Below, in pieces: positions 3,001 through 9,000 of a stretch of DNA of 9,377 bases. The stretch's first letter is position 1; each line of letters begins with the position of its first letter. Origin of the DNA: a virus (lineage: Duplodnaviria > Heunggongvirae > Uroviricota > Caudoviricetes); IMG/VR virus record IMGVR_UViG_2585427737_000013; one strand, given 5' to 3'. A program made the position numbers.

Positions 3001-6000
3001 GTGACAACATCGCCCGGTTGCCCGTTTTAACGTGGGAACAGGCTGGTTATTGGGATATGAGTTGTCCAGTAACCGAGATTCCTGGCATTAAGAATTGGGT
3101 TGATGTCATGACAAAAACCGCTGAAAACTCTTTTTTATTGCATGTTGAGGGAGATGCGATGACAAACTCTAACGGCCTCCCAACCATCCCCGATGGATCT
3201 ACCGTGCTGATCACACCATGCTCAAGTAACATTAGAGAACTGGTGGGAAAAATAATCTTAATCCAATTGGAAGGAACGCCAAACGTAACACTAAAAAAAG
3301 TTGCGATTGACGGACCAAACATCTATCTGTTGTCACTGAATCCGCTTTACAAACCCATCGAACTGAATGGTGGTTACACCATTAAAGGTAAAGTTTCACA
3401 AATACATCAATACTTAGACTGAGTCAGAACCCGCATTCATTGCGGGTTTTTCACGCTCTCAAATGTACCTTTTGCAACATCGTATTGACTCGAAAGGTAA
3501 CTCTTGTTACCTTAACGGCATACCAACCCACCCCGCCCCACAGAATGCAGGGCAATACTTCGAGTTACCAGGCAGTGGTCAGGGGTTAAGTAGCCAGCCC
3601 GAGGCGTAAGAACATGACGGCAGGGTTCAACTTTAATAACTATGCAGCAGGTTTTTGTTCCGCTACCCCGGCGTTAAGGGGAAATGAGGTCAGCATGGAT
3701 ACTATCGATCTTGGCAACAGCGAATCTCTGGTATGTGGCGTGTTCCCCAACCAGGACGGTACGTTCACCGCGATGACGTATACCAAAAGCAAAACGTTTA
3801 AAACCGAAAATGGTGCCCGTCGCTGGCTGGAAAGAAACTCAGGTGAGTGATATGGATTTCGACACAATCATGGAAAAGGCTTACGAAGAATACTTCGAAG
3901 GCCTTGCCGAAGACGAAGAAGCTCTCAGCTTCAGTGAGTTTAAACAGGCGCTTTCCAGTTCGGCAAAATCTAACGGCTGATAAGCGAAACAGCACCGCGA
4001 GGAATCAGTATGCAGAAACGAGAACCCGTCATCATCGCGCCAGACTATACCGATGATGAACTTTATGAGTGGATGCGCCAGAAAATTAATGCAGTGCAGG
4101 ATCTGAAATGGGCCAATGAAGCCAGGACTAAGCAGGCTGAAAATCTGTCCGCTCTGGAGCAGGATATCACCAATCTGGAAAAAGCAGCGGCATTAAGCAT
4201 TGCCAGAATGATTACATACCCGCGTTAATAGCTAACCAACGAAGCTAAGGTTGGTAATTAAGGAGTTCTCCACGGGTGAGGTGGAGTGCGTGCGCCGGAC
4301 ACGGGTGAGCATCCGGCACTGACAGTTTACTGAAAGGATATGTCCCTGAAAAGTCAGGGCATAAAGCGAAAGCGCACGGCGAAATTGGTCTCTCTGTACG
4401 GTGTCGTTAAATTTAGTTCGACCGTGCGCTTCCGGTTGTGGCACTCCGCGAAATGGCGCGGCGGTAAGTATGGCGGGGCTATTCCTTCCCCGTTGAGGAC
4501 ACCGGGTTGTCAGGTTGACCATACGCTTAAGTGACAACCCCGCTGCAACGCCCTCTGTTATCAATTTTCTGGTGACGTTTGGCGGTATCAGTTTTACTCC
4601 GTGACTGCTCTGCCGCCCTTTTTAAAGTGAATTTTGTGATGTGGTGAATGCGGCTGAGCGCACGCGGAACAGTTAAAACCAAAAACAGTGTTATGGGTGG
4701 ATTCTCTGTATCCGGCGTTAATTGTTAACTGGTTAACGTCACCTGGAGGCACCAGGCACCGCATCACAAAATTCATTGTTGAGGACGCGATAATGGAAAC
4801 GTTATTACCAAACGTTAATACGTCTGAAGGTTGTTTTGAAATTGGTGTCACTATCAGTAACCCTGTATTTACTGAAGATGCCATTAACAAGAGAAAACAC
4901 GAACGGGAGTTATTAAATAAAATATGCATTGTTTCAATGCTGGCCCGTTTACGCCTGATGCAAAAAGGACGCTGGCAATGAATACTGCTGTTGCACTGGT
5001 GATGACCGTTTTTCTTATAACGGGTGAGCCACAAAATGTGATTACCGGAATTTATGACAGTAAGTCATCCTGCATTCAGGTAAGGGACGAACAGAAAATT
5101 CCTGGTAACTGTTATCCGGTCGAGAAAGTTATTCGCATGGATAATAACGAAATCCCGGCAGGATTAAAAACAGCGCCGTAATTAATATCCAGTTTCATTT
5201 TTACATGCCAGCAATGGCAGGGATTTGTTCACCCTTAAATCTGTAATGAGGTAAAACAAAATGAGTAAAGTCTTTATTTGCGCCGCCATTCCGGACGAAC
5301 AGGCAATAAAGGAAGAAGGTGCAGTTGCTGTAGCCACTGCCATTGAAGCCGGTGACGAACGCCGCGCCCGTGCCAAATTTACCTGGCAATTCCTGGAGCA
5401 ATATCCGGCTGCTCAGGACTGCGCTTATAAATTTCTTGTCTGCGAGGATAAACCCGGCATGCCCCGCCCTGCTATCGACTCCTGGGATACCGAATATATG
5501 CAGGAAAACCGCTGGAATGAGGAAGGCGCTTCCTTTGTCCCGGTCGAAGCAGAATCCGATCCGATGAACGTCAATTTTGACAAGCTGTCCCTTGAAGTAC
5601 AGAACGCGGTCCTGGTTAAGTTCGGTACATGTGAAAACATCACCGTTGATATGGTGATTAGTGCACAGGAATTGTTGCAGGAGGACATGGCAACATTCGA
5701 CGGGCATATCGTTGAGGCATTGATGAAAATGCCTGAAGTTAACGTCATGTATTCAGAACTAAAGCTGTTCGCCATCGGGTGGGTTAAACATAAATGTAAG
5801 CCGGGCGCAAAATGGCCTGAGATTCAGGCAGAGATGCGCATCTGGAAAAAACGTCGCGAAGGTGAACGCAAGGAAACCGGAAAATACACGTCTGTTGTTG
5901 ATCTCGCCTGCGCCAGAACCAATCAACAGCACAGTGAAAATTCAACAGGAAAAATCAGCCCGGTCATTGCTGCCATTCATCGCGAATACAAGCAGACATG

Positions 6001-9000
6001 GAAAACACTGGATGACGAACTGGCCTACGCTCTCTGGCCTGGTGATGTGGATGCCGGAAACATTGACGGCAGCATCCATCGCTGGGCAAAAAATGAAGTT
6101 ATCGACAACGACCGCGAAGACTGGAAGCGTATCTCGGCATCAATGCGCAAACAGCCTGATGCCCTTCGCTACGACCGCCAGACTATTTTTGGCCTTGTCC
6201 GTGAACGTCCGATCGACATTCACAAAGACCCTGTGGCACTGAACAAATACATTACTGAATACCTGACTACAAAGGGCGTGTTTGAAGATGAAGGAAGAAA
6301 TCAGAGCGCAACTGATACTCTCTCGTCGCCAGTACCAGAAACTGATGCAGTGGAAACGGCAATTCCGGACAACGAAAAAACCGAATGCAAAGTGGAAGTC
6401 GAACCATCTGTAGAGCGTGAGGGGCCGTTCTACTTCCTCTTCACCGACAAGGATGGCGAAAAATACGGTCGCGCAAACAAACTTTCTGGTCTGGATAAGG
6501 CACTGGCTGCCGGGGCTACTGAAATCACGAAAGAAGAATATTTCGCCCGCAAAAACGGTACATACTCAGGTTCACAACAAAATACTGGTGCATCTGACAC
6601 GACCGCACAACCAGGGCCGGTAAAAGTTACCGCTGACGAAGTAAACAAAATTATGCAGGCAGCCAATATCAGCCAGCCTGACGCCGATAAGTTGCTTGCT
6701 GCCTCTCGCGGAGAATTTGTTGCAGGGATTAGCGACCCGAATGATCCGAAATGGGTTAAGGGGATCCAGACCCGCGATTCTGTAAACCAGAACCAGCATG
6801 AATCGGAACGGAACTACCAAAAAGCGGAACAAAACAGCCCAAATGCGTTACAAAACGAGCCAGAAACGAAACAGCCTGAACCAGTGGCGCAACAGGAACC
6901 GGAAAAGATCTGCACCGCCTGCGGTCAGAGCGGTGGCGGCAACTGCCCTGAATGTGGTGCGGTGATGGGCGACGCAACATACCAGGAAACATTCGATGAC
7001 AAGAACCAGGTTGAAGTTCAGGAAGACGATTCGGAGAAAATGGAAGGCGCTGAACATCCACACAAGGAGAATGCTGGCAGCGCTCAGGACCACGCCAGCG
7101 ATAGTGAAACTGGCGAGACGGCAGATTCCTTAATTTCGGTGAACGGTCATCACGTTATCACATCCACCAGCAGAGTGTGGTACCACCTGATGATCGACCT
7201 TGAAACAATGGGAACCAACACCAATGCGCCCATCGTGGTTATTGGTGCGGTTTTCTTCGACCCACAAACAGGGGAAATCGGGCCAGTATTTTATATCGTT
7301 ATCAGTCTGACTGACGCAATGAATACAGGGGCTGTTCCTGACGGTGGAACCATCGAATGGTGGCTGAAGCAGTCCAGTGAAGCCAGAGCTGCCATTTTAA
7401 CAGACCAGGTAAAACTGAAGGATGCCCTTTCGCAGTTTCGGGAGTTCATCAACGAATACTCAGATGAAAAATTCGTTCAGGTATGGGGTAATGGTGCGAC
7501 TTTCGATAACGCAATTTTGCGCACCTCATACGAACGTCTGGACATCCCCTGCCCGTGGCGCTACCACAACGATCGCGATGTACGCACAATCGTTGAGCTG
7601 GGAAAAACAATCGACTTTGATGCCAGAACCGTTATTCCATTCGAAGGCGTGCGCCACAATGCACTGGATGACGCCCGTCACCAGGCAAAATACGTTACAG
7701 CTACGATACAAAAACTGATCCCGAGTCAGGCTGATTTTTAATGTTCAACCATCGCCGGTTGTGACTGGTATTCTGCAACCGGCGCTCATCTGAAGTAAGA
7801 GATAAAAGCGATGAGCGAAGTAATCATGATTGTCTCTCCCGGTAAATGGGTATCCGAAGAACAGCTAATTGCGCTGAAAGGAATAAAAAAGGGAACACTA
7901 AAAAAAGCCAGGGAAAAATCGTTTATGGAAGGAAGGGAATATAAGCATGTAGCCCATGACGGTATGCCATGGGATAACAGCCCATGCTTTTACAACCTGG
8001 AAGAAATTGATCGCTGGATTGAACGTCAGGCATCAGCAAGACCAAGACGTCATCTTACTTGACTAAAAACAATACTAACCAATGAGAGAAGCTAAAATGA
8101 AATATCCGACAGGCGTGGAAAACCATGGAGGGAAATTACGTATCTGGTTTGTTTATAAAGGTGTAAGAGTCAGGGAAAATCTGGGGGTTCCTGACACGAC
8201 AAAAAACAGGCGCATTGCAGGTGAGCTGCGCGCCTCTGTTTGTTATGCAATAAAAACCGGCGTTTTCGACTATGCAAAACAGTTTCCCTCCTCACACAAT
8301 CTGGAAAAATTTGGTGAGGCCCGGCAAGATTTAACCATAAAGGAACTGGCTGAAAAATTTCTGGCACTGAAAGAAACGGAAGTCGCAAAAACGTCACTCA
8401 ACACGTACCGTGCCGTCATCAAAAATATTCTGAGCATAATCGGTGAAAAAAATCTTGCCTCGTCGATTAATAAAGAAAAATTGCTGGCGGTACGTAAAGA
8501 GTTACTTACTGGATACCAGATCCCCAAAAGTAATTATATTGTTACGCAACCGGGGAGATCGGCTGTCACCGTAAATAATTACATGACAAATCTTTACGCC
8601 GTGTTCCAGTTTGGTGTTGATAACGGTTACCTGGCAGATAATCCGTTTAAGGGGATCTCGCCATTAAAGGAATCAAGAACCATTCCTGATCCTCTTTCAC
8701 GGGAGGAATTTATCCGTCTTATCGACGCCTGCAGAAATCAGCAGGCCAAAAATTTATGGTGTGTTTCTGTTTATACAGGCATTCGCCCTGGTGAACTGTG
8801 TGCGCTTGGGTGGGAGGACATAGATCTGAAAAATGGAACAATGATGATCAGGAGAAATTTAGCAAAAGATCGTTTTACGGTACCGAAAACACAGGCTGGT
8901 ACCAATCGGGTAATTCACCTTATCAAGCCTGCAATCGACGCTCTCAGGAGTCAGATGACACTAACGAGGCTGAGCAAAGAACATATTATTGACGTTCACC

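Follow-up and report, generated by a model that had tools for sequence, protein, structure and literature searches.

An intact ydfE-type gene of a Qin-like lambdoid prophage joins a RecE-related tether to a DexA-like DEDDh exonuclease

We analyzed a 9,377-nucleotide stretch of DNA from a tailed phage (Caudoviricetes; IMG/VR record IMGVR_UViG_2585427737_000013), referred to below as the window, which comprises the immunity and early region of a lambdoid prophage of the Qin type. One of its genes is the intact form of Escherichia coli K-12 ydfE and encodes an 826-residue protein. Judged from structural models, this protein begins with a folded carrier, continues as a long flexible tether that bears short conserved motifs, and ends in a C-terminal nuclease head. 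The head is a DEDDh exonuclease domain related to T4 DexA, and we hold this identity and the tethered architecture to be close to certain. For its function, we tentatively favor, with a probability of roughly 35-40%, a tethered 3'-to-5' DNA-end exonuclease that would be made in lytic growth by phages relying on host RecBCD and RecA. The gene is a further member of a catalogued family, and its module class was described in 2025.

The C-terminal head is a DEDDh exonuclease domain

An earlier reading of the window from its sequence alone (the original prediction) placed an open reading frame (ORF) of 826 codons at 5261-7741, and the ORF list gives exactly these coordinates. The protein consists of a confidently folding scaffold (residues 1-440), a largely disordered linker (441-635) and the DEDDh exonuclease (642-814). 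Pfam PF16473 (Rv2179c-like 3'-5' exoribonuclease) matches residues 642-814 with E=7.1e-68 (228.2 bits against a cut-off of 27), covering profile positions 2-175 of 177, and a weak RNase_T Pfam match overlaps the same stretch. This profile check confirms the DEDD family that had been proposed from the D-x-E, FD and H-x4-D motifs, and all catalytic residues are present: D646 and E648 sit in 'MIDLET', D749 in 'NGATFDN', and H799 and D804 in 'HNALDD' (H-x4-D). When the head is aligned with its standalone and fused homologues and T4 DexA, the catalytic columns are invariant, the D749 column nearly so (at least 90%). In one standalone relative, P0040 (180 residues; 72% identity with the head), the counterpart of D749 is an Asn ('NGANFNN'), and some widespread head alleles may therefore be catalytically impaired.

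The predicted structure bears out the DnaQ/RNase T-like fold. In the AlphaFold model of residues 441-826, the predicted local distance difference test score (pLDDT) exceeds 90 across residues ~640-825. The best match for the head in a Foldseek search of the PDB is T4 DexA (8KEL/8KEN, E=6.6e-10, probability 1.00), followed by REXO2, RNase T and Orn/oligoribonucleases, all at probability 1.00. The sole solved relative by sequence is again T4 DexA, entered as a 227-residue 'Exodeoxyribonuclease' (8KEL/8KEN, E=3e-8). By homology to DexA and Rv2179c, the head would be expected to act as a metal (Mg2+)-dependent 3'-to-5' exonuclease. The features of the gene and of the remainder of the window are collected in Table 1.

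Table 1 Features of the scaffold-exonuclease gene and of its surroundings. Positions are those of the window; residue numbers (aa) are those of the 826-residue protein.
Feature	Position	Strand	Basis and remarks
Complete scaffold + DEDDh exonuclease gene, intact form of K-12 ydfE	5261..7741	+	Single uninterrupted ORF, ATG start, 826 aa
YdfE_N domain, aa 1-257: alpha/beta domain (1-~100) and helical domain (~105-215)	5261..6031	+	phrog_5943 (aa 1-257), PF27430 as precomputed in 97%-identical homologues, pLDDT >90
Middle scaffold, aa 258-440	6032..6580	+	Model, 27% identity to RecE, domain mapping in relatives
Mostly disordered tether, aa 441-635	6581..7165	+	Model; 60% amino acid / 82% DNA identity to Rac RecE
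SDPNDPKW motif, aa 491-498	6731..6754	+	Alignment; kept in RecE
Four-Cys zinc ribbon, C551-x2-C554-x7-C562-x2-C565	6911..6955	+	Read from sequence; pLDDT ~60-66
Scaffold/head mosaic junction, codon ~625	7125..7140	.	blastn of window against L006 and L003; protein alignment ends at aa 626
DEDDh (DexA/Rv2179c-like) 3'-5' exonuclease domain, aa 642-814	7184..7702	+	PF16473, alignments, model, Foldseek
Catalytic residues D646, E648, D749, H799, D804	7196-7198, 7202-7204, 7505-7507, 7655-7657, 7670-7672	+	Alignments
Chi site (GCTGGTGG) inside the exonuclease gene	7164..7171	-	~30 bp past the junction at 7134; same position in mEp460, Tritos, HannyBb and PPompW copies
Two Chi sites, 45 bp apart, inside the YdaT-family gene	2132-2139, 2177-2184	-	Same orientation
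Truncated IS3-family transposase, 3' end (rve_2/rve_3 integrase core)	97-312	+	E=3.7e-21; no upstream part in window
DUF977 gene	414-836	-	
358-aa protein in replication-protein position	877-1953	-	No Pfam match
YdaT-family gene	2019-2444	-	
P22_Cro-family gene	2441-2656	-	
CI/DicA-type repressor, helix-turn-helix + S24 self-cleaving peptidase, head of early-left operon	2748..3422	+	Start inferred from 224-aa L006 homologue
DicF small RNA	4567..4618	+	Rfam RF00039, 76.7 bits
dicB (62-aa core 4793-4981) and ydfD/DUF1482 (within 4924-5181), directly upstream of the exonuclease gene	4793..5181	+	Pfam DicB E=1.9e-38, DUF1482 E=3.1e-18
Excisionase (DUF1233, 7811-8062) and tyrosine integrase (8082-9377), directly downstream	7811..9377	+	No annealase between

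The scaffold is partly shared with RecE

The AlphaFold model of residues 1-460 (mean pLDDT 80.6) contains four confidently folded units separated by disordered linkers. The middle scaffold is modeled as a helical domain (245-340), a disordered linker (345-383) and a small beta-hairpin/helix module (385-435). In the model, disorder prevails over residues 441-640, with a two-helix motif (~458-482) and the zinc ribbon at modest model confidence. P493, in the SDPNDPKW motif, is the sole nearly invariant residue in an alignment of 50 diverse scaffold relatives.

The original prediction described this part as a RecE-like scaffold, which holds for the middle region and the zinc ribbon and fails for the N-terminal ~257 residues, which belong to YdfE_N/phrog_5943 and not to PF06630. 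BLASTP against the RecE of Rac-SA53 gave 60% identity over residues 439-621, zinc ribbon included, and a second, weak match of 27% over residues 262-336 against RecE residues 295-368; residues 258-440 are thus, on sequence grounds, a distant homologue of the middle region of RecE. Residues 246-625 align to positions 271-602 of the 877-position NCBIfam model for the RecE equivalog, NF007259, with a score of 275.3 bits against an equivalog cut-off of 1269. Rac-SA53 RecE contains the Pfam N-terminal domain PF06630 (Exonuc_VIII) and the PD-(D/E)XK domain PF12684, and neither is matched in the 826-residue protein. We therefore do not file the protein as RecE, since the equivalog score, the head and the N-domain all fail. 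The missing PF12684 match also bears out the claim that a DEDDh domain stands in place of the RecE nuclease.

RecE (exodeoxyribonuclease VIII) of Rac nevertheless remains the instructive comparison. It occupies the same early-left operon position in a lambdoid prophage, it has a homologous middle region and a 60%-identical zinc-ribbon tether, and it likewise combines a long N-terminal carrier with a C-terminal nuclease (PMC11611040); natural hybrids place the scaffold of one with the head of the other. The two differ in the head, which is a PD-(D/E)XK 5'-to-3' nuclease in RecE and would be expected, by analogy, to work 3'-to-5' here, in the N-domain (PF06630 versus YdfE_N), and in the genes downstream, where the window has no RecT, Lar or YdaC. 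The N-terminal part of RecE has no known function beyond enhancing linear-linear recombination (PMC11611040).

Heads are exchanged on the scaffold and RecT follows the head

A search with residues 1-635 found P0206, a 900-residue protein that is 92% identical over residues 1-626 and then continues into a PD-(D/E)XK head (PF12684). The order at its locus (L006) is repressor, ydfC, dicB, ydfD, the P0206 gene, recT, lar, DUF1187, xis and int. By blastn, DNA homology between the window and L006 spans window positions 4349-7134. Positions 6680-7124 of the window are 82% identical to Rac recE DNA (L003), and this homology ends at 7124. Since the L006 homology stops just past the recE-like stretch, we interpret the conserved tether as the crossover region between Qin-type and Rac-type prophages.

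Scaffold relatives are few: an exhaustive search of 1.84 billion cluster representatives returned only 250, and domain mapping of the 50 longest revealed all four combinations of N-domain and head. YdfE_N is joined to DEDDh in the window protein, P0144 and P0242, and to PD-(D/E)XK in P0206, P0252, P0309 and P0351; RecE_N is joined to DEDDh in P0248, P0261 and P0366, and to PD-(D/E)XK in canonical RecE. A further group of relatives of residues 1-440 (P0245, P0249, P0253, P0270 and P0292) consists of YdfE_N-scaffold proteins of 700-790 residues with neither a DEDDh nor a PF12684 head. Their C-terminal ~250 residues have no Pfam match, and PHROGs assigns them to phrog_7838 ('exonuclease') or phrog_26058 (unknown). 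From sequence, these C-termini are likely a third and a fourth head type, and the proteins that bear them are possibly the 'RecE-2' proteins of a 2025 survey of lambdoid recombination modules (PMC12315714).

RecT tracks the head and not the scaffold in the 11 loci examined. A RecT-family gene follows the PD-(D/E)XK head in three of three (Rac-SA53, L003; L006; L013), and none of the eight loci with a DEDDh head has one (the window, mEp460, Tritos, HannyBb, PPompW, L010, L011 and L012); in these eight, xis or int lies directly downstream. The missing RecT is made more meaningful by the presence of recT directly after the same scaffold when it bears a PD-(D/E)XK head. The pattern fits the specificity of exonuclease-annealase pairs known as the 'SynExo' concept (cited in PMC11611040), which suggests that the DEDDh version works without a dedicated annealase.

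The gene is widespread and under purifying selection

The original prediction implied a novelty that the databases and recent papers do not support. The protein aligns end to end with phrog_2082 ('exonuclease'; residues 1-826 against profile positions 1-823 of 823, 1768.8 bits), and Pfam PF27430 (YdfE_N), PF27432 (YdfE_C) and PF16473 are precomputed for homologues that are 90-97% identical over residues 1-635; the YdfE_N and YdfE_C assignments are those of the homologues. Because the phrog_2082 match and the YdfE_N, YdfE_C and Rv2179c-like Pfam domains exist, the architecture counts as already catalogued. By megablast, the gene is found in 4,799 of 5,426 complete E. coli genomes, with at least 80% query coverage in 3,504 of them (~65% of the total) and a median of two places per genome. 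Copies of 98.9% identity exist in E. coli, where the PGAP annotation names them 'exonuclease', '3'-5' exonuclease' or '3'-5' exoribonuclease domain-containing protein'. Also bearing on novelty are a 'Tritos' module type published in 2025 (PMC12315714) and the E. coli nuclease EcD (PMC12153337), both taken up below.

Full-length copies are also present in Evi, mEp460, Tritos, HannyBb, PhiR42_1 and the PPompW group, all of them functional lambdoid phages. In comparison with the copies of mEp460, Tritos and HannyBb, the ratio of nonsynonymous to synonymous substitution rates (dN/dS) is 0.23-0.24 overall and 0.11-0.51 by region: 0.14-0.16 in YdfE_N, 0.11-0.25 in the middle, 0.41-0.51 in the tether and 0.18 in the head. 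Purifying selection in every region indicates a real, maintained gene rather than a chance ORF. Synonymous divergence from the same copies is dS ~1.0 in the head versus 0.04-0.38 in the scaffold. With its head so much more diverged than its scaffold, the window combines a common scaffold with a head allele that is distinct and less frequent.

Decayed copies are also found. The PPompW_EH1846 copy (L009 1632-4099) is frameshifted by a deletion, and K-12 ydfE (L001 6079-6999) is cut by IS2E. Many of the 183-330-residue 'partial' proteins in the databases probably derive from decayed copies or contig ends. The K-12 case was anticipated by the original prediction: ydfE is 90% identical to residues 1-256 and diverges exactly at the start of IS2E. 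K-12 ydfE is thus the 826-residue gene cut by the insertion sequence (IS) element at codon 256.

The exonuclease as the probable distal gene of the early-left operon of a Qin-type prophage

Downstream of the repressor, the + strand of the window carries ydfA (DUF1391) and ydfB- and ydfC-like ORFs ahead of the dicF-dicB-ydfD group, the exonuclease gene and xis-int. The K-12 Qin order (dicA-ydfABC-dicF-dicB-ydfD-ydfE-IS2E-intQ) is the same. Window ORF and Pfam scans agree with the predicted neighbors, ydfD on one side and xis-int on the other, and with the lack of an adjacent RecT/Bet annealase. Profile scans of the window ORFs revealed no RecT, Bet, Erf or other annealase anywhere in the window, and the early-left ORFs, all of which were scanned, include no annealase, single-stranded DNA-binding protein (SSB) or anti-RecBCD protein.

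A crude consensus scan found no sigma-70-like promoter upstream of the gene on the + strand. The simplest reading is thus that the gene is distal in an early-left operon under control of the repressor, and expression on induction or infection would be expected from that position. The window repressor has a LexA-type S24 domain, unlike the 135-residue DicA of K-12, and this self-cleaving domain suggests that the early-left operon, including the exonuclease, may be SOS-inducible.

Two smaller observations concern the flanking genes. The longest-ORF calls for dicB (4688-4981, 97 residues, GTG start) and ydfD (4924-5181, 85 residues) overlap by 58 bp; their Pfam matches begin at residue 36 and residue 24, respectively, so the true genes are probably the 62- and ~63-residue forms, as in K-12. 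At the other end of the window, the IS element adjoins the DUF977 end of the prophage replication region.

Chi sites and the Tritos-type module

The window has three Chi sites on the phage top strand versus 0.26 expected, and one of 200 shuffles reaches three; these figures are for the window, outside which the rest of the prophage lies. Counts on the top and the other strand, respectively, are 9 and 2 in Tritos, 5 and 2 in HannyBb, and 3 and 1 in PPompW. The Chi site just past the mosaic junction raises Chi-stimulated recombination as a possible helper in creating or spreading the head swap.

A recent survey classified the recombination modules of 314 lambdoid phages (PMC12315714, Genome Res 2025). 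In this survey, a 'Tritos' type of four phages has a nuclease, no annealase, SSB or anti-RecBCD protein, and many Chi sites; DnaQ-like nucleases are tightly packed in lambdoid Rec modules; and phages without anti-RecBCD are argued to use host RecBCD and Chi for recombination-dependent growth. Tritos itself has the gene order of the window and an 86%-identical full-length homologue, and no annealase, Gam or SSB is annotated in its 46 kb. Likewise, no annealase, SSB or anti-RecBCD protein is annotated in the whole HannyBb genome. With a nuclease and no annealase, SSB or anti-RecBCD gene, the window fits the Tritos type as far as it reaches, and its three Chi sites are compatible with the many of that type. 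It departs from the published description in two ways: the accessible text of PMC12315714 contains neither the fusion of scaffold and head nor the head swap nor the covariation with RecT, and it counts four phages, compared with a gene present in ~65% of complete E. coli genomes.

DexA, EcD and the standalone homologues

T4 DexA, whose structure has been solved (PMC12153337, NAR 2025), is a DNA exonuclease that prefers single-stranded DNA, works at breaks and takes part in intron homing, a form of double-strand-break repair (PMC12153337). It is the nearest solved structure and the nearest PDB sequence to the head, has the same DEDDh residues and is also phage-encoded. The identity is ~28-30%, however, and DexA is a standalone 227-residue protein of a virulent phage, with extra loops, a dimer/tetramer switch and no scaffold. 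DexA W152 and D169 are not conserved in the head: W152 aligns to the His of 'RYHNDRD', beside an invariant Asn, and D169 to a Thr, where the alignment is less certain. DexA D90, the Asp linked to tetramerization, aligns to D721, a position at which EcD has Ala (A78).

EcD, a standalone E. coli homologue of DexA, is reported to digest DNA containing 5-hydroxymethylcytosine (5hmC) and T4 genomic DNA, to leave unmodified double-stranded DNA intact and to protect E. coli from T4, an activity termed 'HREX' (Kang et al. 2025, PMC12153337). We compared it through its primers and residue numbering rather than its full sequence (HAK9828821.1). It belongs to the same DexA family in E. coli, its MIDTET start (from the primers) and its numbering fit a register in which M644 is residue 1, and it is absent from K-12, consistent with the truncation of ydfE. 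The differences are that EcD is standalone and starts at MIDTET, that it has Ala at the D721 position, and that the reported 5hmC-recognition Trp aligns to His here; PMC12153337 mentions neither a prophage context nor a long fused form. The 22-base EcD primer pattern had no match in viral or metagenome contigs and matched one unrelated Hydrogenophaga homologue in genome contigs. This protein, found through a chance share of the primer sequence, lies in a Hydrogenophaga metagenome-assembled genome (L019 2151-2693), has 180 residues and a PF16473 match (E=2.9e-48), starts MNNLMIDTETMG and directly follows a 660-residue ORF without a Pfam match. It extends the family to Betaproteobacteria.

Enterobacterial prophages and P22-like phages also have standalone PF16473 exonucleases, which are 58-97% identical to the head and likewise lie in early-left operons. 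They differ in size (~183-190 residues) and in having no scaffold, and in many of them Ala replaces D721 and Trp replaces the His. Gene 29 of the P22-like phage g341c encodes a standalone homologue (56% identity) and lies inside a recombination module, between erf-ssb and abc2. In the Salmonella loci L016-L018 the homologue comes after YfdP, DUF2303 and DndB-like genes, and the xis (DUF1233) and int (Arm-DNA-bind_2) families are those of the window. Overall, the exonuclease is found linked to xis-int time and again, with at least three different xis/int families involved. The 'TONDO' ISG20-like exonucleases, prophage proteins directed against RNA phages (PMC13344964), belong to a different DEDDh clade limited to fewer than 500 residues, and we treat them as an analogy only.

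Proposed function and alternatives

As the last gene before xis-int in a repressor-controlled operon, the exonuclease gene would stay off in the quiescent lysogen and be expressed on induction or infection. It would be the only recombination-module gene of a Chi-rich, Qin/Tritos-type phage, and would remove nucleotides from DNA 3' ends, either double-strand ends or the 3' tails of replicating phage DNA. For example, 3'-tailed ends might be trimmed blunt, allowing entry of host RecBCD, Chi-stimulated RecA loading and recombination-dependent growth. This would be the opposite of RecE, which makes 3' tails for a dedicated annealase. The DNA substrate and the polarity are proposed by analogy with DexA and EcD, the expression timing would follow from the lack of a detected promoter of its own, and cooperation with RecBCD and RecA is suggested by Chi-rich genomes that lack anti-RecBCD, following the argument in PMC12315714. 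Among the observations that support this model are the homologue inside the g341c recombination module, the recombination nuclease that the scaffold bears elsewhere (P0206), the covariation of RecT with the head type, the Tritos gene order and Chi counts, the action of DexA on DNA at breaks, the purifying selection and the presence of the gene in functional phages. Departure from RecET recombination, which the original prediction had proposed, would likewise be expected from homology to DexA and Rv2179c.

Several points weigh against the model. According to PMC12315714, DnaQ-type 3'-5' exonucleases usually inhibit homologous recombination, and DnaQ-type genes adjoining int may fall outside the Rec module. 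Standalone 189-residue homologues lie directly upstream of xis-int in the Salmonella loci L016-L018 and in E. coli L014-L015 with no recombination genes. The feeding of RecBCD is a conjecture of ours, and the substrate may be RNA, PF16473 being named for an exoribonuclease. A fold search with the scaffold model (residues 1-440) returned no informative structural relative and no functional clue, and a literature search (Rv2179c with phage; ydfE; RecE with DEDDh and prophage) found no functional study of the 826-residue fused protein, and so no characterized RecT-independent role for this architecture, which would have refuted the original prediction. The promoter scan was a simple consensus search, and the Chi counts span three whole genomes and the window.

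EcD points to a different role, in which the prophage protein would exclude superinfecting phages by degrading incoming modified-cytosine DNA such as that of the T-even phages. The 5hmC selectivity and T4 protection reported for EcD (PMC12153337) speak for it, as do the fit of its MIDTET start and of A78 (DexA D90) to the register of the head and the extreme commonness of a prophage-borne gene. We consider it unlikely here. None of the positions linked to 5hmC selectivity is kept (D721 is not Ala, His stands for W152 and Thr for D169), and a gene of the repressor-controlled operon with no detected promoter of its own should be silent in the lysogen. The gene is also kept in free-living functional phages, and exclusion gives no role to a 635-residue scaffold common to a recombination nuclease. 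PADLOC returned a weak, generic CRISPR-associated DEDDh match (E=3.6e-5), which also led us to reject filing the protein under a known defense system.

We think it similarly improbable that the exonuclease is an anti-defense factor that destroys a nucleic-acid part or product of host immunity (for example, retron multicopy single-stranded DNA (msDNA), or a single-stranded DNA or RNA guide or signal) or that alleviates restriction. Early-left operons are rich in such genes (gam, ral/lar, abc2); lar travels with the alternative PD-(D/E)XK-recT cassette, and abc2 flanks the standalone homologue of g341c. The RecE of Rac degrades retron msDNA both in vivo and in vitro, which was called an anti-restriction function (bioRxiv 10.1101/2020.06.22.160242), so nucleases on a RecE-type scaffold do meet defense nucleic acids. 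According to the same study, however, degradation of msDNA triggers retron defense rather than defeating it, and we found neither an anti-defense annotation (PHROGs, PADLOC) nor a paper assigning such a role to the 826-residue protein.

Placement directly upstream of xis-int, shared by the gene and its standalone homologues across several xis/int families, draws attention to RNA, since lambda int expression from pL is controlled via the 3' end of the mRNA (sib retroregulation). An enzyme acting like Rv2179c, RNase T or Orn could trim early-left transcripts (the dicF precursor, the xis-int mRNA) or host RNAs, and both the exoribonuclease on which PF16473 was defined and the structural neighbors after DexA (REXO2, RNase T, Orn) are compatible with this. 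The closest characterized relatives, DexA by sequence and structure and EcD by report, are DNA exonucleases, however; the scaffold is common to a double-stranded DNA exonuclease, and a homologue lies within a DNA recombination module. The fold does not discriminate between the two substrates, since RNase T/Orn-type enzymes also cut DNA. We rate an RNA exonuclease as quite improbable.

Finally, a functionless leftover of a chance Rac-type by Qin-type recombination at the zinc-ribbon segment, for which the clear breakpoint beside 82% recE-identical DNA and a Chi site and the decayed K-12 (IS2E) and PPompW (frameshift) copies might speak, is largely refuted and very improbable, and so is a decaying relic: purifying selection extends to every region, the head among them (dN/dS 0.18 at dS ~1.0), no catalytic residue has been lost, thousands of genomes as well as functional phages have the gene intact, and the DEDDh head is found on both YdfE_N-type and RecE_N-type scaffolds.

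A broader form of the preferred model, a 3'-end exonuclease coupled to host recombination, would make the RecE/YdfE scaffold a general nuclease-delivery platform. Its N-domains and its SDPxDPKW/zinc-ribbon tether would dock on a single conserved target (a DNA end, or a host protein of replication or recombination) and carry at least four heads (PD-(D/E)XK, DexA-like DEDDh, phrog_7838 and the phrog_26058 C-terminus); the DEDDh version would process 3' ends in a pathway that needs no annealase and is coupled to host RecBCD and Chi. We regard this generalization as doubtful.

Significance

The gene does not overturn current understanding, being already in the databases and partly described in 2025. 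In the accessible parts of the published texts, we did not find descriptions of the scaffold/head modularity, the sharp junction, the covariation with RecT or the mismatch to the HREX signature. The gene is one of the commonest prophage genes of E. coli, often with several copies per genome, and K-12, the host of most genetics, carries just the IS-truncated stub ydfE. Our comparison also places the reading of EcD as bacterial defense in a prophage context that PMC12153337 did not consider. If the platform reading were true, the commonest E. coli lambdoid prophage class would need the pathway for its recombination-dependent growth, and the N-terminal two-thirds of RecE would be explained. The naturally occurring head swap, on scaffolds that are 92% identical, provides an experimental handle on the role of the large N-terminal part of RecE, and on how lambdoid phages without annealase and anti-RecBCD achieve recombination-dependent growth.

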